Shown here: in pieces, positions 13,076 to 23,616 of the stretch
Layout: the number at the start of each line of letters is the position of its first letter
Numbering within the stretch: position 1 is the stretch's first letter
From: Chitinophaga pinensis
GTDB taxonomy: Bacteria > Bacteroidota > Bacteroidia > NS11-12g > UBA9320
Length of the DNA: 64,000 bases
Assembly (NCBI GenBank): GCA_945907065.1
Contig: CAMDSC010000002.1
Span: forward strand, 96,803-160,802
Direction: 5' to 3'
The notes under the pieces: model-generated
The model's database searches: none
What the model was told of the DNA's origin: nothing
Seen by the model: only the letters and a program-made list of their open reading frames with translations
Translations under genes and position numbers: made by a program

Positions 13076-13639
13076 CTACCCTTTCACCTTCAAATTATTA
13101 AAAACCCCATTGGTTATATTTACTGAATCCATGCGAATGGCATTGTTAGGGTCAGTATAATCCAACAAAAGAGCTTTGGCCGAAAAAGTGCCCGACATTG
13201 TATTGGCAGTATTTTTTGTCACATTAATAGTTCCACCTTCCAAGTACCATTTTTTGTCATCGGCATCTATATAAAATCCTATGCCGGTGTATTGGTCGTT
13301 TTCAATACTGAACACTTTACCTGAAGCAACTACTCCTTTGGGCATTGGGATAGCTATATCCAAATTAAATTTACCAGATTTGGCAAATCCTGTAAAGTAA
13401 GTTTTGCCACCATAATCTGCCTGAACTTTTGAAAATTCGATTTTTTGGCCATTAAAATAAAGGCTAAAATCAGGATTGGTATTTAAGCCGGTTACATTAT
13501 TTCCTCCACCACCACCGTTGTTGGTAGTGTCTTTTGGTGTAACGATTGGATTTACAGGGTCATCGCCACCTTGGCTGCAAGATGCAAATGAAAAAGCCAT
13601 TAAAAAGGCTGCGAATAGGTTGTTTATTTTTCTTATCAT
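13076..13639 (-). CDS. Hypothetical lipoprotein
   Basis: Signal peptide and lipobox ...FSFASC. The post-Cys SQGGDD is acidic, which may be a surface-export signal. A Gly/Asn-rich linker follows. Confidence 0.5.
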   Translation of the reverse strand: MIRKINNLFAAFLMAFSFASCSQGGDDPVNPIVTPKDTTNNGGGGGNNVTGLNTNPDFSLYFNGQKIEFSKVQADYGGKTYFTGFAKSGKFNLDIAIPMPKGVVASGKVFSIENDQYTGIGFYIDADDKKWYLEGGTINVTKNTANTMSGTFSAKALLLDYTDPNNAIRMDSVNITNGVFNNLKVKG

Positions 13640-17466: not shown

Positions 17467-17492
17467 AAAACGGGGTTTCCCCCGTTTCAAAT
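17465..17492. terminator. Bidirectional intrinsic terminator between convergent ridA and the OMP gene.
   Basis: A-run, then ACGGGG-TTTC-CCCCGT hairpin, then T-rich tail (aaaataaaaaACGGGGtttcCCCCGTttcaa). Confidence 0.6.
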
Positions 17493-17519: not shown

Positions 17520-19019
17520 TTAAAATTTTGAAGTAAAGGTAATAACCATTGTGTTTCCTGAAAATTTATTCTCAGCTATAGCTTGGGGACGGCTATTATC
17601 ATTAAGTACATAAGGTTGAAAAACATCTTTACCAAGAGTATGAACCAAGCCAAAATCCAATGCCCAAGTTTTGTCTTTTATTCCCAATCCTCCTGTTACA
17701 TAATCCGAACGTTGATTAGTGTTAGTGCTTTCCAAAAATGGTGAACCATAACTTGCAAATCCACCTCTTAACCTAAATTCATCCAAAACTAATTCGCCAC
17801 CAACTCTATAATTAATAGCGGTAGTATATTTTTTACGGATATCATCATTCGCTATTTCCATAGCATTGTTTCCATCAGTGCTTCTCAATCGCATGGCTGA
17901 ATAATCCACTCCTTCCATATCAGCACTTATAAAACCCATTTTACCAATAATACCAGTTGCACTTAAAGTATAACGGCCTGGGGTTTGCAAACTATATTCG
18001 TAATTTCCCTTTTTGCTATCAAAATTAAAATTTGTACCATTTCGGATGGTTGAATTTATTGAAAAATCGTAGGTATCAGTTAAATTAATAATTTGCGGAG
18101 TTTGCAAACTTGCTCCAAATCTTAAATAATCATGAGGCTTAACAATTATCCCCAATCGTCCTGAAAAGCCACCGCCACGGGTATGCAAATTTTCGGAATA
18201 TGTAAAATTATCCATTGAATAAGGGCTCACATTAGCAGGGTCATTTGTTTCTGCATGAGTTCTGGTTTCTTTAAAATTAACTGAAGTATAACTTATGGTT
18301 GCTCCCAAATAAACCACATCGCTATAATTGCCAGCCAATGAAAAATTATATTCATTCATCCCACCACTTTGTTGCATTACTCCTTTTTGATTAATATTAT
18401 GAAATATGGGGCTAGCATTGGCTGCATATTTTCTATCGCCTATTGAATCAAACAGGTAAGATTCCCAAGCCATTGTGGTTTTTGAAGAAAATCCATTATC
18501 AAAATCGTCGTCAGAAGCACGAATTTGTTTAACAGTTGAGCCATTGGCACGTTCTGCAAAATAATCCATTAAGCTGGTTTGAGTATTAATTCCTTCAAAA
18601 TTAATAACCCGATTAAAATCAGCTACTCTGGCCATATTCATAGCAAATGTGTAATTTTTCCAACCCCGTTCATCTTTTTTAGTAGCAGTTTGATTGGCAA
18701 ACACCAACCCAAAATTGGGTATGTTCATTTTAAAAACATTATCTGCTACAGAATTACCCATATAAGTGCTAACATTTTTATTATTAATAAATCCTGCCGA
18801 AAAACTGAACTCGCCCTTTTTATACTGCGCCAATCCAGCTGGGTTTACTGATGCTGAAGAAACATCGGCTCCTAATGAACCAACCGCCCCAGCAATTGAC
18901 ATAGACTTGGCAGTACTTCCAAATTTTTTGTTGGTATAACGAATGGCATCCATGTCATTTTGTGCCATGGCTTGGAAACAAAACAATCCCATAAAGCCTG
19001 AAATTATAAACTTTTTCAT
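17520..19019 (-). CDS. FadL/OmpP1/TodX-like (PorV-like) outer-membrane beta-barrel protein
   Basis: Signal peptide MKKFIISGFMGLFCFQAMAQ. N-terminal segment SMSIAGAVGSLGADVSSASVNPAGLA resembles the FadL-family 'AGxGxA...NPAGLA' plug motif. Gly/aromatic-rich beta-strand periodicity, and a C-terminal ...TSKF (terminal Phe). Confidence 0.55.
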   Translation of the reverse strand: MKKFIISGFMGLFCFQAMAQNDMDAIRYTNKKFGSTAKSMSIAGAVGSLGADVSSASVNPAGLAQYKKGEFSFSAGFINNKNVSTYMGNSVADNVFKMNIPNFGLVFANQTATKKDERGWKNYTFAMNMARVADFNRVINFEGINTQTSLMDYFAERANGSTVKQIRASDDDFDNGFSSKTTMAWESYLFDSIGDRKYAANASPIFHNINQKGVMQQSGGMNEYNFSLAGNYSDVVYLGATISYTSVNFKETRTHAETNDPANVSPYSMDNFTYSENLHTRGGGFSGRLGIIVKPHDYLRFGASLQTPQIINLTDTYDFSINSTIRNGTNFNFDSKKGNYEYSLQTPGRYTLSATGIIGKMGFISADMEGVDYSAMRLRSTDGNNAMEIANDDIRKKYTTAINYRVGGELVLDEFRLRGGFASYGSPFLESTNTNQRSDYVTGGLGIKDKTWALDFGLVHTLGKDVFQPYVLNDNSRPQAIAENKFSGNTMVITFTSKF

Positions 19020-19057
19020 AATTATAAATTAATTAATATTTAAAATCGTAATCGAAC

Positions 19058-20647
19058 TTATCTGCCTCTGCCTTTTGAAGATGGGGATGAAGAACCACCT
19101 GAATTGCTTCCTGAAGGAGTCGTCCCGCCTCTATTTCCGCCACCATCATATGAACGGGGTGAAGGTGTATTTTTAGGTTCTTCCCTCCTTTGGTAATTAT
19201 TATTAGAAGGTTGATCATTTCCTCTGCTCCTGTTTTCAGGTGTTTCAGAACTTCGGCTCCTAGTTTTTCTTTCCTCCTTAGGTTGGTCATAAGTCGTATT
19301 TGGAGTATTATCTGGCTGATATGATCTGGTTCTATTTTCGCGTGTTTCTGTATTTTTTCCTCGTGTACCTGGAGTTGCTCCACTATTAGAGGGAGTTTCA
19401 TTACCACGAGAAGGAGTTTCATAGCTTCGTTCTTCCACAGTTGTTCTCCTATCTATTTCTCTCTTTCTACCAGAATTGTCACCATCGGTTCCTGTTGTGG
19501 TTCCATTATTATTGTTACCAGTTCTTTCTGAATTACTATTATCAGAGGATCTTGTGGTTCCCTTATTTCCATCACCAGAGGTCGCTTCTTTACTATTATC
19601 ATTTATTCTACCACGAGTATCCTTTGGATTATTACTACCATCATTTCCAACCATTTCTCCTCTTTTATCTTTTTTGGGATCATAAGTTGTGCCACCATCT
19701 TCAGGGTCTTGCTGCACCATTCCTCCTCTACTACGAGGTGAAATTTGGTCTTTACGTGAGTTAGAAGATGTATTACTTCCTATGGTTTCACGAGGTCCTG
19801 TCATTTTACCTTTATCTGGCCTATATCCTCCACCATTGTTTCCTCCATTATTGGTTGAATAAACATGCACCGGGCGATACCATGGACTATTATAATTATT
19901 GTAACCGCCATAATATCCACCATAACCGTTATTAAATCCCCCGTAGCCATAACCGCCATAACCGTAAGGATTGTAGTACCCATAAGGAGTTCCACCATAA
20001 TATGCATTAGAATAATAACCCCAACCTCCAGAGTAACCATACCAAGGATCATAAAAATTATTGTAGCAAGGATAATAGCTGGTCCTCCAACCCCAAGCAG
20101 GATAACCATAGTTATAGCCTACATTCCAGCCGTTCCAAGTATTATATCCCACCCAAAAACGATTTCGTGCGGGTCTATTCCATCCCCAAGTTGGGTTGTT
20201 GTAATAAGAGTTGTAATAACCACCGCCTTGTCTGTAATTATTATATAATGCATCACTATAGCCATCACTATAGCCATCACCATATCTCAATCGTTGAAAC
20301 GAACGCCCATAAGAAAAATCATCGTCATCATCATAGTTATAATCATTATTGTCAGAATAATTGTAATTATCATTTCTTGAAGAACTGTTAGGTTCTCTAA
20401 CTATTTCTTCAGCCTCCCCTTCTTTATATTTTTTATAAACAGGTTCTTCTACCGGGGTAGTTTGGGTATCGTATTTACTATTATCTACCTGAGTTGGTTC
20501 ACTTTGTTTTGGGGTAACTTCTTTTACATCCTTAGAGGTTGAGTAAACATCATCATACTGACCCAAATTATTACTTCCATTTTGTTTTAAGGTATTACAG
20601 GATCCAAGAACCAATAAAATAACGCTTAATTGTAATAGTGTTTTCAT
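19058..20647 (-). CDS. Lipoprotein with a Tyr/Gly/Asn/Trp-rich low-complexity domain and an Arg/Ser/Thr/Asn/Gly-rich disordered C-terminus
   Basis: Signal peptide plus LGSC lipobox. An acidic Asn/Asp/Tyr segment follows. Then ~180 aa of GYG/YGG/NNY/W-containing sequence (e.g. YYGGTPYGYYNPYGYGGYGYGGFNNGYGGYYGGYNNYN). Then ~240 aa dominated by R, S, T, N, G, E and D. The many overlapping ORFs in other frames are what repetitive DNA typically produces. Confidence 0.6.
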   Translation of the reverse strand: MKTLLQLSVILLVLGSCNTLKQNGSNNLGQYDDVYSTSKDVKEVTPKQSEPTQVDNSKYDTQTTPVEEPVYKKYKEGEAEEIVREPNSSSRNDNYNYSDNNDYNYDDDDDFSYGRSFQRLRYGDGYSDGYSDALYNNYRQGGGYYNSYYNNPTWGWNRPARNRFWVGYNTWNGWNVGYNYGYPAWGWRTSYYPCYNNFYDPWYGYSGGWGYYSNAYYGGTPYGYYNPYGYGGYGYGGFNNGYGGYYGGYNNYNSPWYRPVHVYSTNNGGNNGGGYRPDKGKMTGPRETIGSNTSSNSRKDQISPRSRGGMVQQDPEDGGTTYDPKKDKRGEMVGNDGSNNPKDTRGRINDNSKEATSGDGNKGTTRSSDNSNSERTGNNNNGTTTGTDGDNSGRKREIDRRTTVEERSYETPSRGNETPSNSGATPGTRGKNTETRENRTRSYQPDNTPNTTYDQPKEERKTRSRSSETPENRSRGNDQPSNNNYQRREEPKNTPSPRSYDGGGNRGGTTPSGSNSGGSSSPSSKGRGR

Positions 20648-20736
20648 GATAAAAATATTTAATTATGCATTTAGTTTTAACTTTGCATTTTAATAAAAAC
20701 AATTCCTATACCAAAGATACAATATAAATTTAATAG

Positions 20737-22212
20737 ATGGCATTTCAAAAAATAAAACGGGAGGACGATTACTCAAAATGGTACAACAATTTAGTTGTAA
20801 ATGCAGATTTGGCCGAGCATTCGGCTGTTAGAGGCTGCATGGTTATTAAACCTTACGGTTATGCTATTTGGGAAAAAATGCAGCAGCAATTAGACAAAAG
20901 GTTTAAAGAAACTGGACACAGCAATGCCTATTTCCCTTTGTTTGTTCCCAAAAGTTTATTTGAAGCCGAAGAAAAAAATGCCGAAGGCTTTGCTAAAGAA
21001 TGTGCCGTAGTTACGCATTACCGCTTAAAGTCGGACCCAAATAATCCGGGAAAACTTATCGTAGACCCTGACGCAAAATTGGAAGAAGAACTGATAGTTA
21101 GACCTACCTCAGAAGCCATTATTTGGAGTACTTACAAAAACTGGATTCAAAGTTACCGCGACTTGCCTTTGCTCATTAATCAATGGGCCAACGTGGTGAG
21201 ATGGGAAATGCGAACCCGTCTATTTTTAAGAACTGCTGAATTCTTATGGCAAGAAGGACATACTGCTCACTCTACTAGACAGGAGGCGATTGAAGAAGCA
21301 GAACGTATGTTAGATGTGTATGCCGAGTTTGCCGAAACTTTTTTAGCAATTCCGGTTATCCGAGGGGTAAAAACTCCGAATGAACGATTTGCCGGAGCCG
21401 AAGAAACTTATACAATTGAAGGGATGATGCAGGATGGCAAAGCCCTACAAATGGGAACTTCACATTTTTTAGGGCAAAATTTTGCCAAAGCATTTGATGT
21501 AAAATTTGCTACCAAGGAAGGCACTCAGGAATATGTGTGGGCCACCAGCTGGGGAGTAAGTACCCGATTAATGGGGGCTTTAATCATGGCTCACTCCGAT
21601 GATGAAGGATTGATTTTACCGCCAAGCATAGCACCTATTCAGGTAGTTATAATACCTATTTATAAAGGCGAAGAAGAATTGGGAACCATTTCTCAAAAAG
21701 TTAAACCTTTGCAGGAAGCTTTAAAAAAAGCAGGTATTTCGGTAAAATATGATGACCGCGATACGCAACGTAGCGGCTGGAAATTTGCCGAATATGAATT
21801 GAAAGGTGTTCCGGTTAGGATTGCTATTGGCCCTAGAGATTTACAAAATAACACGGTTGAAATAGCCCGTCGCGACACCAAAGAAAAAATGAGTTTGAGT
21901 ATGGATGGACTAACCGAAACAATTCAAAATCTTTTGGAGGAAATTCAAACAAATATTTATACCAAAGCCAAAAAATACCAACAAAGCAATATTAATGAGG
22001 TAAATACCTGGGCTGAATTTGAAGCCGCTTTAGAAAAAGGTGGATTTGTCAGTGCCCATTGGGATGGAACCCCTGAAACTGAAGAAAAAATAAAAGATGA
22101 AACTAAGGCTACAATTCGTTGCATTCCTTTAGATAATAATTTAGAAGAAGGAGTTTGTATACTAAGCGGAAAGCCAAGTAAGAAAAGGGTTTTGTTTGCA
22201 AGGGCGTATTAA
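20737..22212 (+). CDS. proS: Proline--tRNA ligase (archaeal/eukaryote-like class II form)
   Basis: N-terminus ...[36 protein letters not shown], class II core, and a C-terminal Zn-binding-like tail. 491 aa. Confidence 0.9.
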
Positions 22213-22269: not shown

Positions 22270-22602
22270 TCACTCCCCAGTCCCCTCTCCCAACTTCACC
22301 TCTAACCCATCCAATTCAGGGGTTAGCTTAAGCTGGCAACTAAGGCGACTGTATGGAATATCCAATAAAAAGGCATCATCCAACATCGCTTCTTCATCTT
22401 CCGACATGGGTGGCAAAGCCCTACTGTTGCAAACCACCACATGGCATGAGGCACACATAGCCATTCCTCCACAGGTTGCTTTTATTTGCATATCGTTGGC
22501 ACGGATAGCCTCCATTAAATTTAGGCCCATATCCGTAGGTACCTTTATTTGATGTTTATTTCCTAAAAGGTCGGTAATATTAATATTTATCACTGCTTCC
22601 AT
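22270..22602 (-). CDS. 2Fe-2S ferredoxin (adrenodoxin/putidaredoxin type)
   Basis: Cys ligands in ATCGGMAMCASCHVVV plus a downstream C (SRLSCQ). 110 aa. Confidence 0.8.
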   Translation of the reverse strand: MEAVININITDLLGNKHQIKVPTDMGLNLMEAIRANDMQIKATCGGMAMCASCHVVVCNSRALPPMSEDEEAMLDDAFLLDIPYSRLSCQLKLTPELDGLEVKLGEGTGE

Positions 22603-22608
22603 TTTCTA

Positions 22609-23616
22609 TTAAAAAGCTTTAACACCACTTACTGTGGTATATTTTAGCACAAGGTTTTTATCGGGATAAATATACTTATGGGCCGATTGCACCATAAGTG
22701 CAGCTTCGTGAAATCCACACAAAATCAACCTTAACTTTCCGGGATAATCATTAATATCACCAATGGCATATATGCCGGGAATATTGGTACTGTAATCCTG
22801 CGGATTTACTTTTATTGATTCCTTATGTAGATTTAAATTCCAATGTTTTAGTGGTCCAAGCTTGGGTGAAAGTCCAAATAATGGTATAAAATAATCGGCA
22901 GAAACCTTTGTAATTTCATCGTTGTCAAAATTTGTAATTTCCAAATTTTCAAGCTTTCCGACTCCGTTAATACCGGTTACTTCTGAATTAAGAACTAATT
23001 TAATTTTGCCATTAGCTGCCAAATCGTTTACTTTTTTTACCGAATCCAAATGCCCGCGAAAACTAGTTCTACGATGAATCAAGGTTACGCTTTTAGCCAC
23101 ATCTGCCAAAAAAATTGTCCAATCCAATGCTGAATCTCCTCCACCCGATATTACAACGTTTTTATCTCTGTACTTTTCAGGGTCTTTTACAATATAATCC
23201 ACGCCCTTATCTTCAAAATCAATAAGGTTTGGAATTTCAGGCTTTCGCGGTTCAAAACAACCCAAACCTGCGGCTATTGCTATAACCGGTGCCAAATGCT
23301 CTGTACCTTTATTAGTAGTAAGTTTCCAGCGTCCATCTTCCATTTTTTCGATATGCTCGGCCCGTTCGCCCAAAGTATATCCTGGCTTAAAAGGCTCAGC
23401 TTGTTTTGTAAGATTTTTAACCAAATCTCCAGCCATTACTATTGGGAAACCTGGAATATCGTAGATTGGTTTTTTAGGGTAAATTTCGGTAAGCTGTCCT
23501 CCTGCTGTAGGTAATGAATCTATAAGATGGCAATGAAGTTGGACAAGGCCAGCCTGAAACACAGTGAACAAACCACATGGTCCGGCTCCTATTATTAATA
23601 TATCGGTTTCAATCAC
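22609..23616 (-). CDS. Ferredoxin--NADP+ reductase (thioredoxin-reductase-like, YumC type)
   Basis: N-terminal FAD-binding DILIIGAGPCGLF and a second Rossmann VVISGGGDSALDW. 335 aa. Sits directly upstream of the ferredoxin. Confidence 0.8.
   Translation of the reverse strand: MIETDILIIGAGPCGLFTVFQAGLVQLHCHLIDSLPTAGGQLTEIYPKKPIYDIPGFPIVMAGDLVKNLTKQAEPFKPGYTLGERAEHIEKMEDGRWKLTTNKGTEHLAPVIAIAAGLGCFEPRKPEIPNLIDFEDKGVDYIVKDPEKYRDKNVVISGGGDSALDWTIFLADVAKSVTLIHRRTSFRGHLDSVKKVNDLAANGKIKLVLNSEVTGINGVGKLENLEITNFDNDEITKVSADYFIPLFGLSPKLGPLKHWNLNLHKESIKVNPQDYSTNIPGIYAIGDINDYPGKLRLILCGFHEAALMVQSAHKYIYPDKNLVLKYTTVSGVKAF

Follow-up and report, generated by a model that had tools for sequence, protein, structure and literature searches.

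We examined a window of 64,000 nt from the Chitinophaga pinensis assembly GCA_945907065.1 (contig CAMDSC010000002.1, positions 96,803-160,802 of the forward strand), and describe here two genes on its minus strand, one for a predicted lipoprotein of 529 amino acids (aa) and the next for an outer-membrane barrel of 499 aa from the FadL/OmpP1/TodX family. As judged from gene neighborhoods, the pair is conserved across Bacteroidota. Neither Pfam (2025 copy) nor NCBIfam (2026) contains a model of the lipoprotein family, none of whose members is named. The initial annotation of this DNA had located both open reading frames correctly on the minus strand and had the barrel gene following closely downstream on that strand, as it does, though across a gap of 38 bp rather than 39. 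The main features, in window positions, are:

19058-20647, minus strand: lipoprotein gene, 529 aa, an open reading frame whose stop codon (19058-19060) lies outside the product
20597-20647, minus strand: signal peptide and lipobox, aa 1-17, ending ...VLGS-C17 (LGSC), with Cys17 invariant among close homologues
20372-20596, minus strand: acidic N-terminal block, aa 18-92, delimited by composition
20540-20554, minus strand: DDVYS motif, aa 32-36, 15 residues past the lipid Cys, corresponding to the family motif DD[VIL]Y[YS]
19835-20371, minus strand: Tyr/Gly/Asn/Trp block, aa 93-271, with 57 Tyr, Trp or Phe per 179 residues
19061-19834, minus strand: basic tail rich in Arg, Ser, Thr, Asn, Gly and Pro, aa 272-529 (31 Arg, 15 Lys)
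17520-19019, minus strand: FadL/OmpP1/TodX-family outer-membrane barrel gene, 499 aa, an open reading frame
18837-18845, minus strand: NPA motif of the barrel's hatch domain, N59-P60-A61, from a 70-sequence alignment

The lipoprotein and its family

The three compositional blocks that the initial annotation had distinguished in the lipoprotein are borne out, along with the signal peptide and LGSC lipobox ahead of them, and each block has the composition claimed. From its sequence the protein is predicted to be exported and lipidated at Cys17. The aromatic block contains the conserved YDDDDDFSYGRSFQRLRY (aa 105-122) and WGWNRP...FWVGYNTWNGW...WGWRT; over aa 130-290 the composition is 22% Tyr, 22% Gly, 15% Asn, 7% Pro and 6% Trp, with nearly no aliphatic residues. 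The tail is made mainly of Ser, Gly, Asn, Thr, Arg, Asp, Pro and Glu, and carries GPRETIGSN...DQISPRSRGG (aa 284-309), scattered [RST]SYxxP-like motifs and a C-terminal GRGR. AlphaFold2, supplied with an 89-sequence alignment, gave a predicted local distance difference test score (pLDDT) of 44 and zero secondary structure past the signal helix; apart from its signal peptide, the lipoprotein is predicted to be disordered. FUS likewise has Tyr-rich and Arg-rich parts in one chain. The earlier description of the lipoprotein as FUS-like or prion-like is apt for composition and predicted disorder, but misses that particular Trp, Arg and Gly residues of the aromatic block are retained in position.

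The protein aligns from end to end with eight close homologues, among which the Trp, Arg and Gly positions of the aromatic block are invariant. When the gene was compared with those of three relatives, synonymous sites were saturated (pS about 0.7-1.0), and nonsynonymous divergence (pN) was 0.05-0.20 in the aromatic block, about 0.12-0.30 over aa 266-312 and 0.26-0.47 in the tail. By these measures the gene is under purifying selection, and the aromatic block is its most constrained part. Conservation and pN/pS together rule out a frameshift or assembly artefact, which the initial annotation had wanted checked for the Tyr/Gly-rich region. Tandem Repeats Finder reported only three short arrays of 2-3 copies each in the lipoprotein gene; its low complexity therefore did not arise by a recent expansion of DNA repeats.

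Between window positions 19000 and 20000 the plus strand has an AT skew of -0.20 to -0.30, and GC skew is negative across the lipoprotein gene; this probably reflects the extreme amino acid composition. Overlapping open reading frames of 100-130 aa in the same region (19441-19764 and 19865-20248, plus strand; 19801-20109 and 19033-19422, minus strand) have odd His/Tyr/Ile-rich translations and were rejected as shadows of biased codon content.

An exhaustive profile search found 4517 family clusters at E<=1e-3, 2146 at 1e-10 and 563 at 1e-30, counted at 50% identity. Every named member is a "hypothetical protein" save one mislabelled UniRef entry; a look-up of twenty members likewise returned "hypothetical protein" throughout, all from metagenome-assembled genomes. 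The mislabelled entry (P0198, Hymenobacter cavernae) is named "Prolyl-tRNA synthetase", a mistake that almost certainly spread from the annotation of the neighboring proS. Pfam and NCBIfam scans of the lipoprotein, its isolated aromatic block and four homologues gave no match (Pfam to E<=10), those of the lipoprotein included no known peptidoglycan-binding domain, and a PDB search with the lipoprotein profile gave only noise (the BamD signal-peptide region and the reaction-centre M subunit). The initial expectation that no characterized family would claim the lipoprotein thus holds for Pfam, NCBIfam and PDB.

Conserved features were read from a set of 70 distinct family members taken from loci adjoining barrel homologues. 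The lipid Cys is conserved in 99%. At 8-15 residues past it, DD[VIL]Y[YS] is found in 68 of the 70, the two Asp and the Tyr (D32, D33 and Y35 in the window) each being 96-97% conserved. Common to the set are an acidic-aromatic stretch ending in R-x-R-R-F (window aa 103-121) and, near the boundary of aromatic block and tail, a YYG-x-R motif whose G284 and R286 are 90-91% conserved. At the C-terminus, Arg or Lys is the last residue in 219 of 245 family proteins, and 108 of the 245 end in RR. At least seven members have no lipid Cys; they have instead a signal-peptidase-I-type Ala-Gln site, with DDxYY following within 1-7 residues (Cys-less members are L058, P0180, P0202, P0235, P0279, P0283, P0289 and P0332). 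That these keep the motif at the N-terminus suggests that the lipid anchor is dispensable.

The blocks differ in charge and in their use of basic residues. On family average, the N-terminal block has 74 aa and a net charge of -6.7, is composed of Ser, Thr, Asp, Tyr, Glu and Asn, and has an Arg to Lys ratio of about 1:2. The aromatic block averages 150 aa with a net charge of -3.7 (23% Tyr, 17% Gly, 11% Asn, 9% Ser, 7% Trp; Arg to Lys 12:1), and the tail 274 aa with a net charge of +23.4 (19% Ser, 11% Asn, 11% Arg, 10% Thr, 9% Pro, 9% Gly; Arg to Lys 2.9:1). The ratio in the partner barrels is 1:1. Positional identity is 0.377 among aromatic blocks against 0.26-0.28 when shuffled, and 0.245 among tails against 0.15-0.16, the relatedness of the 70 sequences inflating both real values somewhat; for the aromatic block, the excess over shuffled sequences indicates conservation of position beyond composition.

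In some distant homologues the basic tail is expanded into tandem TPSRS/PSRSA-type repeats (L001, 4282-5961; L003, 4345-5943). In the L003 tail there are 33- and 102-nt DNA repeats with up to 93% identity, a pattern that points to recent repeat gain in that gene.

Surface lipoproteins of Bacteroidota carry an acidic export signal in the six positions past the lipid Cys (PMC12578637). Acidic residues at +1 to +6 are absent in 66 of the 70 members, and the other four have just one. The cell-surface location that the initial annotation had suggested is therefore doubtful, and the lipoprotein probably faces the periplasm.

Conserved pairing of the two genes

On the contigs of six barrel homologues (54, 43, 38, 31, 30 and 29% identity), the gene immediately upstream encodes in all six cases an unannotated lipoprotein of the same build, and proS is divergently upstream of the lipoprotein in five. 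A scan of one genome per GTDB species, with a 12-sequence barrel alignment as query, returned 80 loci, all with Bacteroidota names or metagenome-bin labels except for a Chlorobiota bin and an "uncultured bacterium". About 70 species-level loci had enough upstream sequence; in these the barrel is always preceded by a protein of the same build, down to about 30% barrel identity. The gap between the two genes is mostly 15-130 bp, in a few cases up to about 260 bp. Most of these loci have the order proS, lipoprotein, barrel, and the genes on the far side of the barrel differ from locus to locus; proS is the only conserved neighbor. Whether the pairing recurs in related genomes had been named at the outset as a check, and it does so phylum-wide. 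A cultured Hymenobacter isolate has proS, the lipoprotein, and then a 511-aa gene of unchecked identity.

Two loci stand somewhat apart. One lies on a GC-rich contig (L009), where the lipoprotein tail is Pro/Ala-rich and proS is not adjacent; the other is in the bin labelled Chlorobiota (L065). With the pair present at both, the unit may extend past Bacteroidota into the wider Fibrobacterota-Chlorobiota-Bacteroidota group.

A probable counterpart has appeared in the literature. Flavobacterium johnsoniae has the adjacent genes Fjoh_4939 (proline-tRNA ligase), Fjoh_4940 (lipoprotein) and Fjoh_4941 (OMPP1/FadL/TodX protein) (PMC12045153), the same order of proS, lipoprotein and FadL homologue as in the window. 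Fjoh_4940 is annotated there as a signal-peptidase-II "periplasm-facing lipoprotein, function unknown"; both it and Fjoh_4941 were detected in the membrane proteome, and depletion of TamL raised them 2.6-fold and 5.6-fold, respectively (PMC12045153). The authors, mentioning the pair only in a proteomics table, remark that its proximity "might indicate a functional link" (PMC12045153).

In the window the pair is flanked by the following transcription-related and neighboring features:

20712-20719, minus strand: candidate Bacteroidota-type -7 box TATCTTTG (TAnnTTTG), a consensus match only
19020-19057, minus strand: gap between lipoprotein gene and barrel gene, 38 bp, with no terminator-like site
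17467-17488, minus strand: intrinsic terminator-like hairpin with a 9-pair stem (5 G-C pairs) and a T run after it
20737-22212, plus strand: proS (prolyl-tRNA synthetase), an open reading frame, the conserved divergent neighbor; context, outside the unit

The short gap, the lack of a terminator-like site between the genes and the terminator-like hairpin after the barrel make the pair look like an operon on sequence grounds. The hairpin is G+C-rich and begins 32 nt past the barrel stop codon. The candidate -7 box TATCTTTG is 65-72 nt 5′ of the lipoprotein ATG (20647), in the region shared with the divergent proS; TTTG at 20746-20749 is a possible -33 element, with a spacing of 26 nt to the -7 box that exceeds the usual.

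The pair sits among housekeeping genes, to judge from the open reading frames of the window. Just past proS, a 2Fe-2S ferredoxin-like open reading frame (110 aa) and a ferredoxin-NADP reductase-like one (335 aa) lie side by side (22270-23616, minus strand), and a copy of the reductase also adjoins proS in loci L005 and L006. At 13076-13639 (minus strand) is a predicted small lipoprotein of 187 aa with the lipobox FASC and, after the anchor, a Gly/Asn run, TTNNGGGGGNNVTG; this is a further example, in the same genome, of an envelope protein with a low-complexity linker.

The barrel and systems that resemble the pair

Scanned alone against Pfam and NCBIfam, the window barrel matched no family, and a sub-threshold PilA4 match was treated as chance. 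It has 148 homologues, many of which carry PF03349 or the name OmpP1/FadL family transporter. A profile of 70 homologues searched against PDB recovered TbuX (1.8e-12), Pseudomonas aeruginosa FadL (PaFadL; 1e-8), CymD (3e-7), PorV (4.5e-6, over the N-terminal 70 residues only) and Escherichia coli FadL (EcFadL; about 1e-5); none of the BamG chains 9hiv_F, 9hjm_F and 9n2d_B was recovered even at E<=10. Scores from structure comparison were 30.0 for EcFadL, 29.9 for PaFadL, 29.0-29.8 for the BamG chains, 29.1 for TodX, 26.1 for PorV and 12.3 for FapF. Foldseek agrees with this ranking, its top match being the Bacteroides thetaiotaomicron BamG.

The barrel is 14-stranded with an N-terminal hatch inside the lumen, as is characteristic of the FadL family. 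In the NPA motif of the hatch, aligned to N33-P34-A35 of EcFadL, N59 and P60 are invariant and A61 is at least 90% conserved among the 70 sequences. The mature N-terminus is 7 residues longer than that of EcFadL, and contains D24 and R27, invariant in the 12-sequence alignment. Residue 20, the first past the predicted signal-peptidase-I site, is an invariant Gln; exported proteins of Bacteroidota commonly have N-terminal Gln or pyroglutamate after signal peptidase I, and the barrel's Gln fits. In the DSSP string of the barrel model a strand break falls at residues 135-136, which is compatible with a kink in strand S3, the feature that gives FadL-family channels a lateral opening, and proves nothing. 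Going by sequence, the barrel is of the FadL family, nearer its transporter branch (TbuX, FadL) than to BamG or PorV. With the FadL/TodX/TbuX channels it shares the N-terminal hatch, the NPA motif and significant profile similarity; it differs from them in being about 70 residues longer, in the conserved 7-residue N-terminal extension, and in not keeping the D348 position of EcFadL. FadL/TodX-type channels pass hydrophobic molecules, and we know of no classical FadL channel with an obligate upstream-encoded partner lipoprotein.

The initial label for the barrel, "FadL/PorV-like", is thus right as to FadL and loose as to PorV, which matches only at the N-terminus in sequence and is further off in structure. 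It is extremely unlikely that the barrel serves as a PorV-like type IX secretion shuttle, with the lipoprotein as its cargo or adaptor. PorV scores below FadL, TodX and BamG in structure, none of the loci examined has porU or another type IX gene alongside, and the lipoprotein ends in basic residues (RR) and is without a folded C-terminal sorting domain. The PorV of F. johnsoniae, which we take to be Fjoh_1555, is moreover a gene distinct from Fjoh_4941.

The nearest analogue in architecture comes from the β-barrel assembly machinery (BAM). In Bacteroidota, a FadL-like barrel, BamG, is an essential part of the BAM complex; a surface lipoprotein, BamH, wedges its conserved N-terminus between BamG strands, and a single operon encodes the paralogues BamG2 and BamH2 (PMC12578637, PMC12611786; 2025). 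BamH belongs to Pfam DUF4270 and is a folded surface lipoprotein with an acidic export signal (Bacteroidota BAM work); in F. johnsoniae, BamG is Fjoh_1412 and BamH is Fjoh_0823 (2025 BAM papers). The window pair resembles BamG-BamH in joining a FadL-fold barrel with a lipoprotein gene, operonic as in G2/H2, and BamG is as close to the window barrel in structure as FadL is. It could, then, be an alternative or accessory module of the BAM complex, as would suit the Foldseek match to B. thetaiotaomicron BamG, the conserved N-terminal extension of the barrel, the BamG2/BamH2 operon, and the disordered Tyr/Gly/Asn-rich loop in Bacteroidota BamA. We consider this quite unlikely, however. The sequence relationship of BamG to the window barrel is undetectable by profile in PDB, where TbuX, FadL and PorV are all found; the window lipoprotein, unlike BamH, is predicted to be disordered, matches no Pfam domain at E<=10 and has no acidic export signal. 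The F. johnsoniae BamG and BamH genes are not the proS-adjacent ones, and the purified BAM complexes in PMC12578637 and the second 2025 paper list no such pair.

Functional amyloid systems offer another comparison: in curli (CsgA/CsgG) and Fap (FapC/FapF), as in the window, the gene for a low-complexity protein lies beside one for an outer-membrane barrel. The initial annotation had leaned toward such a system, with the lipoprotein as a self-assembling subunit of a surface fibre, functional amyloid or matrix, exported by the barrel as CsgA is by CsgG and FapC by FapF. The Tyr/Gly/Asn-rich, prion-like composition and the adjacent, conserved barrel gene would both fit. The curli and Fap subunits, however, are secreted and have a repeat-built beta-solenoid, whereas the window lipoprotein has a lipobox, which means that it would be anchored and not released, and AlphaFold2 gave it no beta structure even with 89 sequences. 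The near absence of tandem arrays and the missing acidic surface-export signal in 66 of 70 members also count against a fibre, as does the neighborhood, where there are no nucleator, chaperone or other accessory genes and proS is the sole conserved neighbor at the loci examined. The barrel, finally, belongs to a plugged family unrelated to the amyloid channels. A fibre subunit with its channel is on this evidence very unlikely.

A possible channel with a disordered partner

We think it quite possible, if a little short of probable, that barrel and lipoprotein function as a single unit, in which a FadL-type channel has a disordered and probably periplasm-facing partner of its own; for any specific cargo our confidence is lower. 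The lipoprotein would sit on the inner leaflet of the outer membrane, facing the periplasm, with a Ser/Thr/Asn-rich tether of 8-15 residues holding DD[VIL]Y close to the membrane. This motif would dock the lipoprotein onto the partner barrel, much as the BamH N-terminus does on BamG; the Cys-less members, which keep DDxYY at the N-terminus, fit a docking motif that acts without the lipid. The aromatic block, the Arg-rich tail (about +23) and the acidic block would come together beside the channel as a membrane-tethered mesh, joined by Tyr/Trp-Arg and charge contacts; alternatively, the aromatic block and the tail would bind polyanions of the envelope. Such a mesh might accept hydrophobic or amphipathic cargo such as fatty acids or lipids, or pass it on, or else tie the channel to peptidoglycan or the inner membrane.

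Disordered domains with comparable chemistry are known. Bacteroidota BamA has a disordered Tyr/Gly/Asn-rich loop, EL3, likened by its authors to hydrogel-forming YG/FG domains. EL3, the PEX13 YG domain, the FG nucleoporins and the FUS low-complexity domain all resemble the aromatic block of the window lipoprotein in being disordered, rich in Tyr/Gly (or Phe/Gly) and very poor in aliphatic residues. The window block differs in its length, about 150-180 residues against 38 in EL3, in its conserved Trp and Arg positions and in its lipid anchor. A bolder form of the proposal would make the Tyr/Trp-Arg mesh a self-associating counterpart of the PEX13 YG domain and FG nucleoporins, coupled to the channel throughout Bacteroidota and providing a phase, selective and hospitable to hydrophobic molecules, in which lipids or fatty acids are carried between the outer membrane and the rest of the envelope; in this full form we judge it unlikely.

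Several points weigh against the proposal of a channel with its disordered partner. Lack of the usual export signal leaves room for surface exposure of the lipoprotein through a dedicated partner. The position aligned to D348 of EcFadL is Ser in the barrel family, and the substrate may therefore differ from that of EcFadL. Physical contact between lipoprotein and barrel is conjectural, and self-association of the disordered blocks is surmised from composition alone. A mirror-tree comparison did not discriminate, correlation with the lipoprotein being 0.41 for the barrel and 0.40 for the ProS control. Finally, Fjoh_4940 and Fjoh_4941 are probably orthologues of the window pair, an identification made only from gene order and annotation class.

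The tail allows a different emphasis, in which the lipoprotein is an envelope tether or spacer, its Arg-rich tail and sugar-stacking aromatic block linking the outer membrane to peptidoglycan or the inner membrane, and the barrel is incidental or serves as anchor. An average tail of 274 residues with a net charge of +23 and a strong preference for Arg would suit this role, as would the probable periplasmic orientation, the rise of the putative F. johnsoniae counterpart under outer-membrane stress, and the setting of the pair amid housekeeping genes. On the other hand, no known peptidoglycan-binding domain was found by the Pfam and NCBIfam scans, and a tether would leave unexplained both the phylum-wide adjacency of a FadL-type barrel and the membrane-proximal DDxY as the best conserved element. 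We rate such a tether as rather unlikely.

Considered singly, the barrel adds a member to a family already known, and outer-membrane barrels with lipoproteins of their own have precedents. A conserved disordered partner of about 500 residues, with Tyr/Trp and Arg blocks and short linear motifs, is as far as can be told an undescribed kind of bacterial protein. The pair is functionally uncharacterized, the F. johnsoniae pair having been remarked on in passing in one paper (PMC12045153). Direct testing is feasible, since F. johnsoniae, which has the probable orthologues Fjoh_4940 and Fjoh_4941, is amenable to genetics.

Recent work has shown the outer membrane of Bacteroidota to depart from the E. 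coli model: its BAM complex has a subunit resembling FadL, a dome on the cell surface and a BamA loop rich in Tyr and Gly. The pair described here is a further phylum-wide outer-membrane unit, and an expressed one if Fjoh_4940 and Fjoh_4941 are its counterparts. If the lipoprotein works with the channel, the pair could throw light on the passage of hydrophobic molecules across the periplasmic side of the outer membrane in Bacteroidota, and could offer a bacterial example of a disordered phase that serves in transport or tethering.

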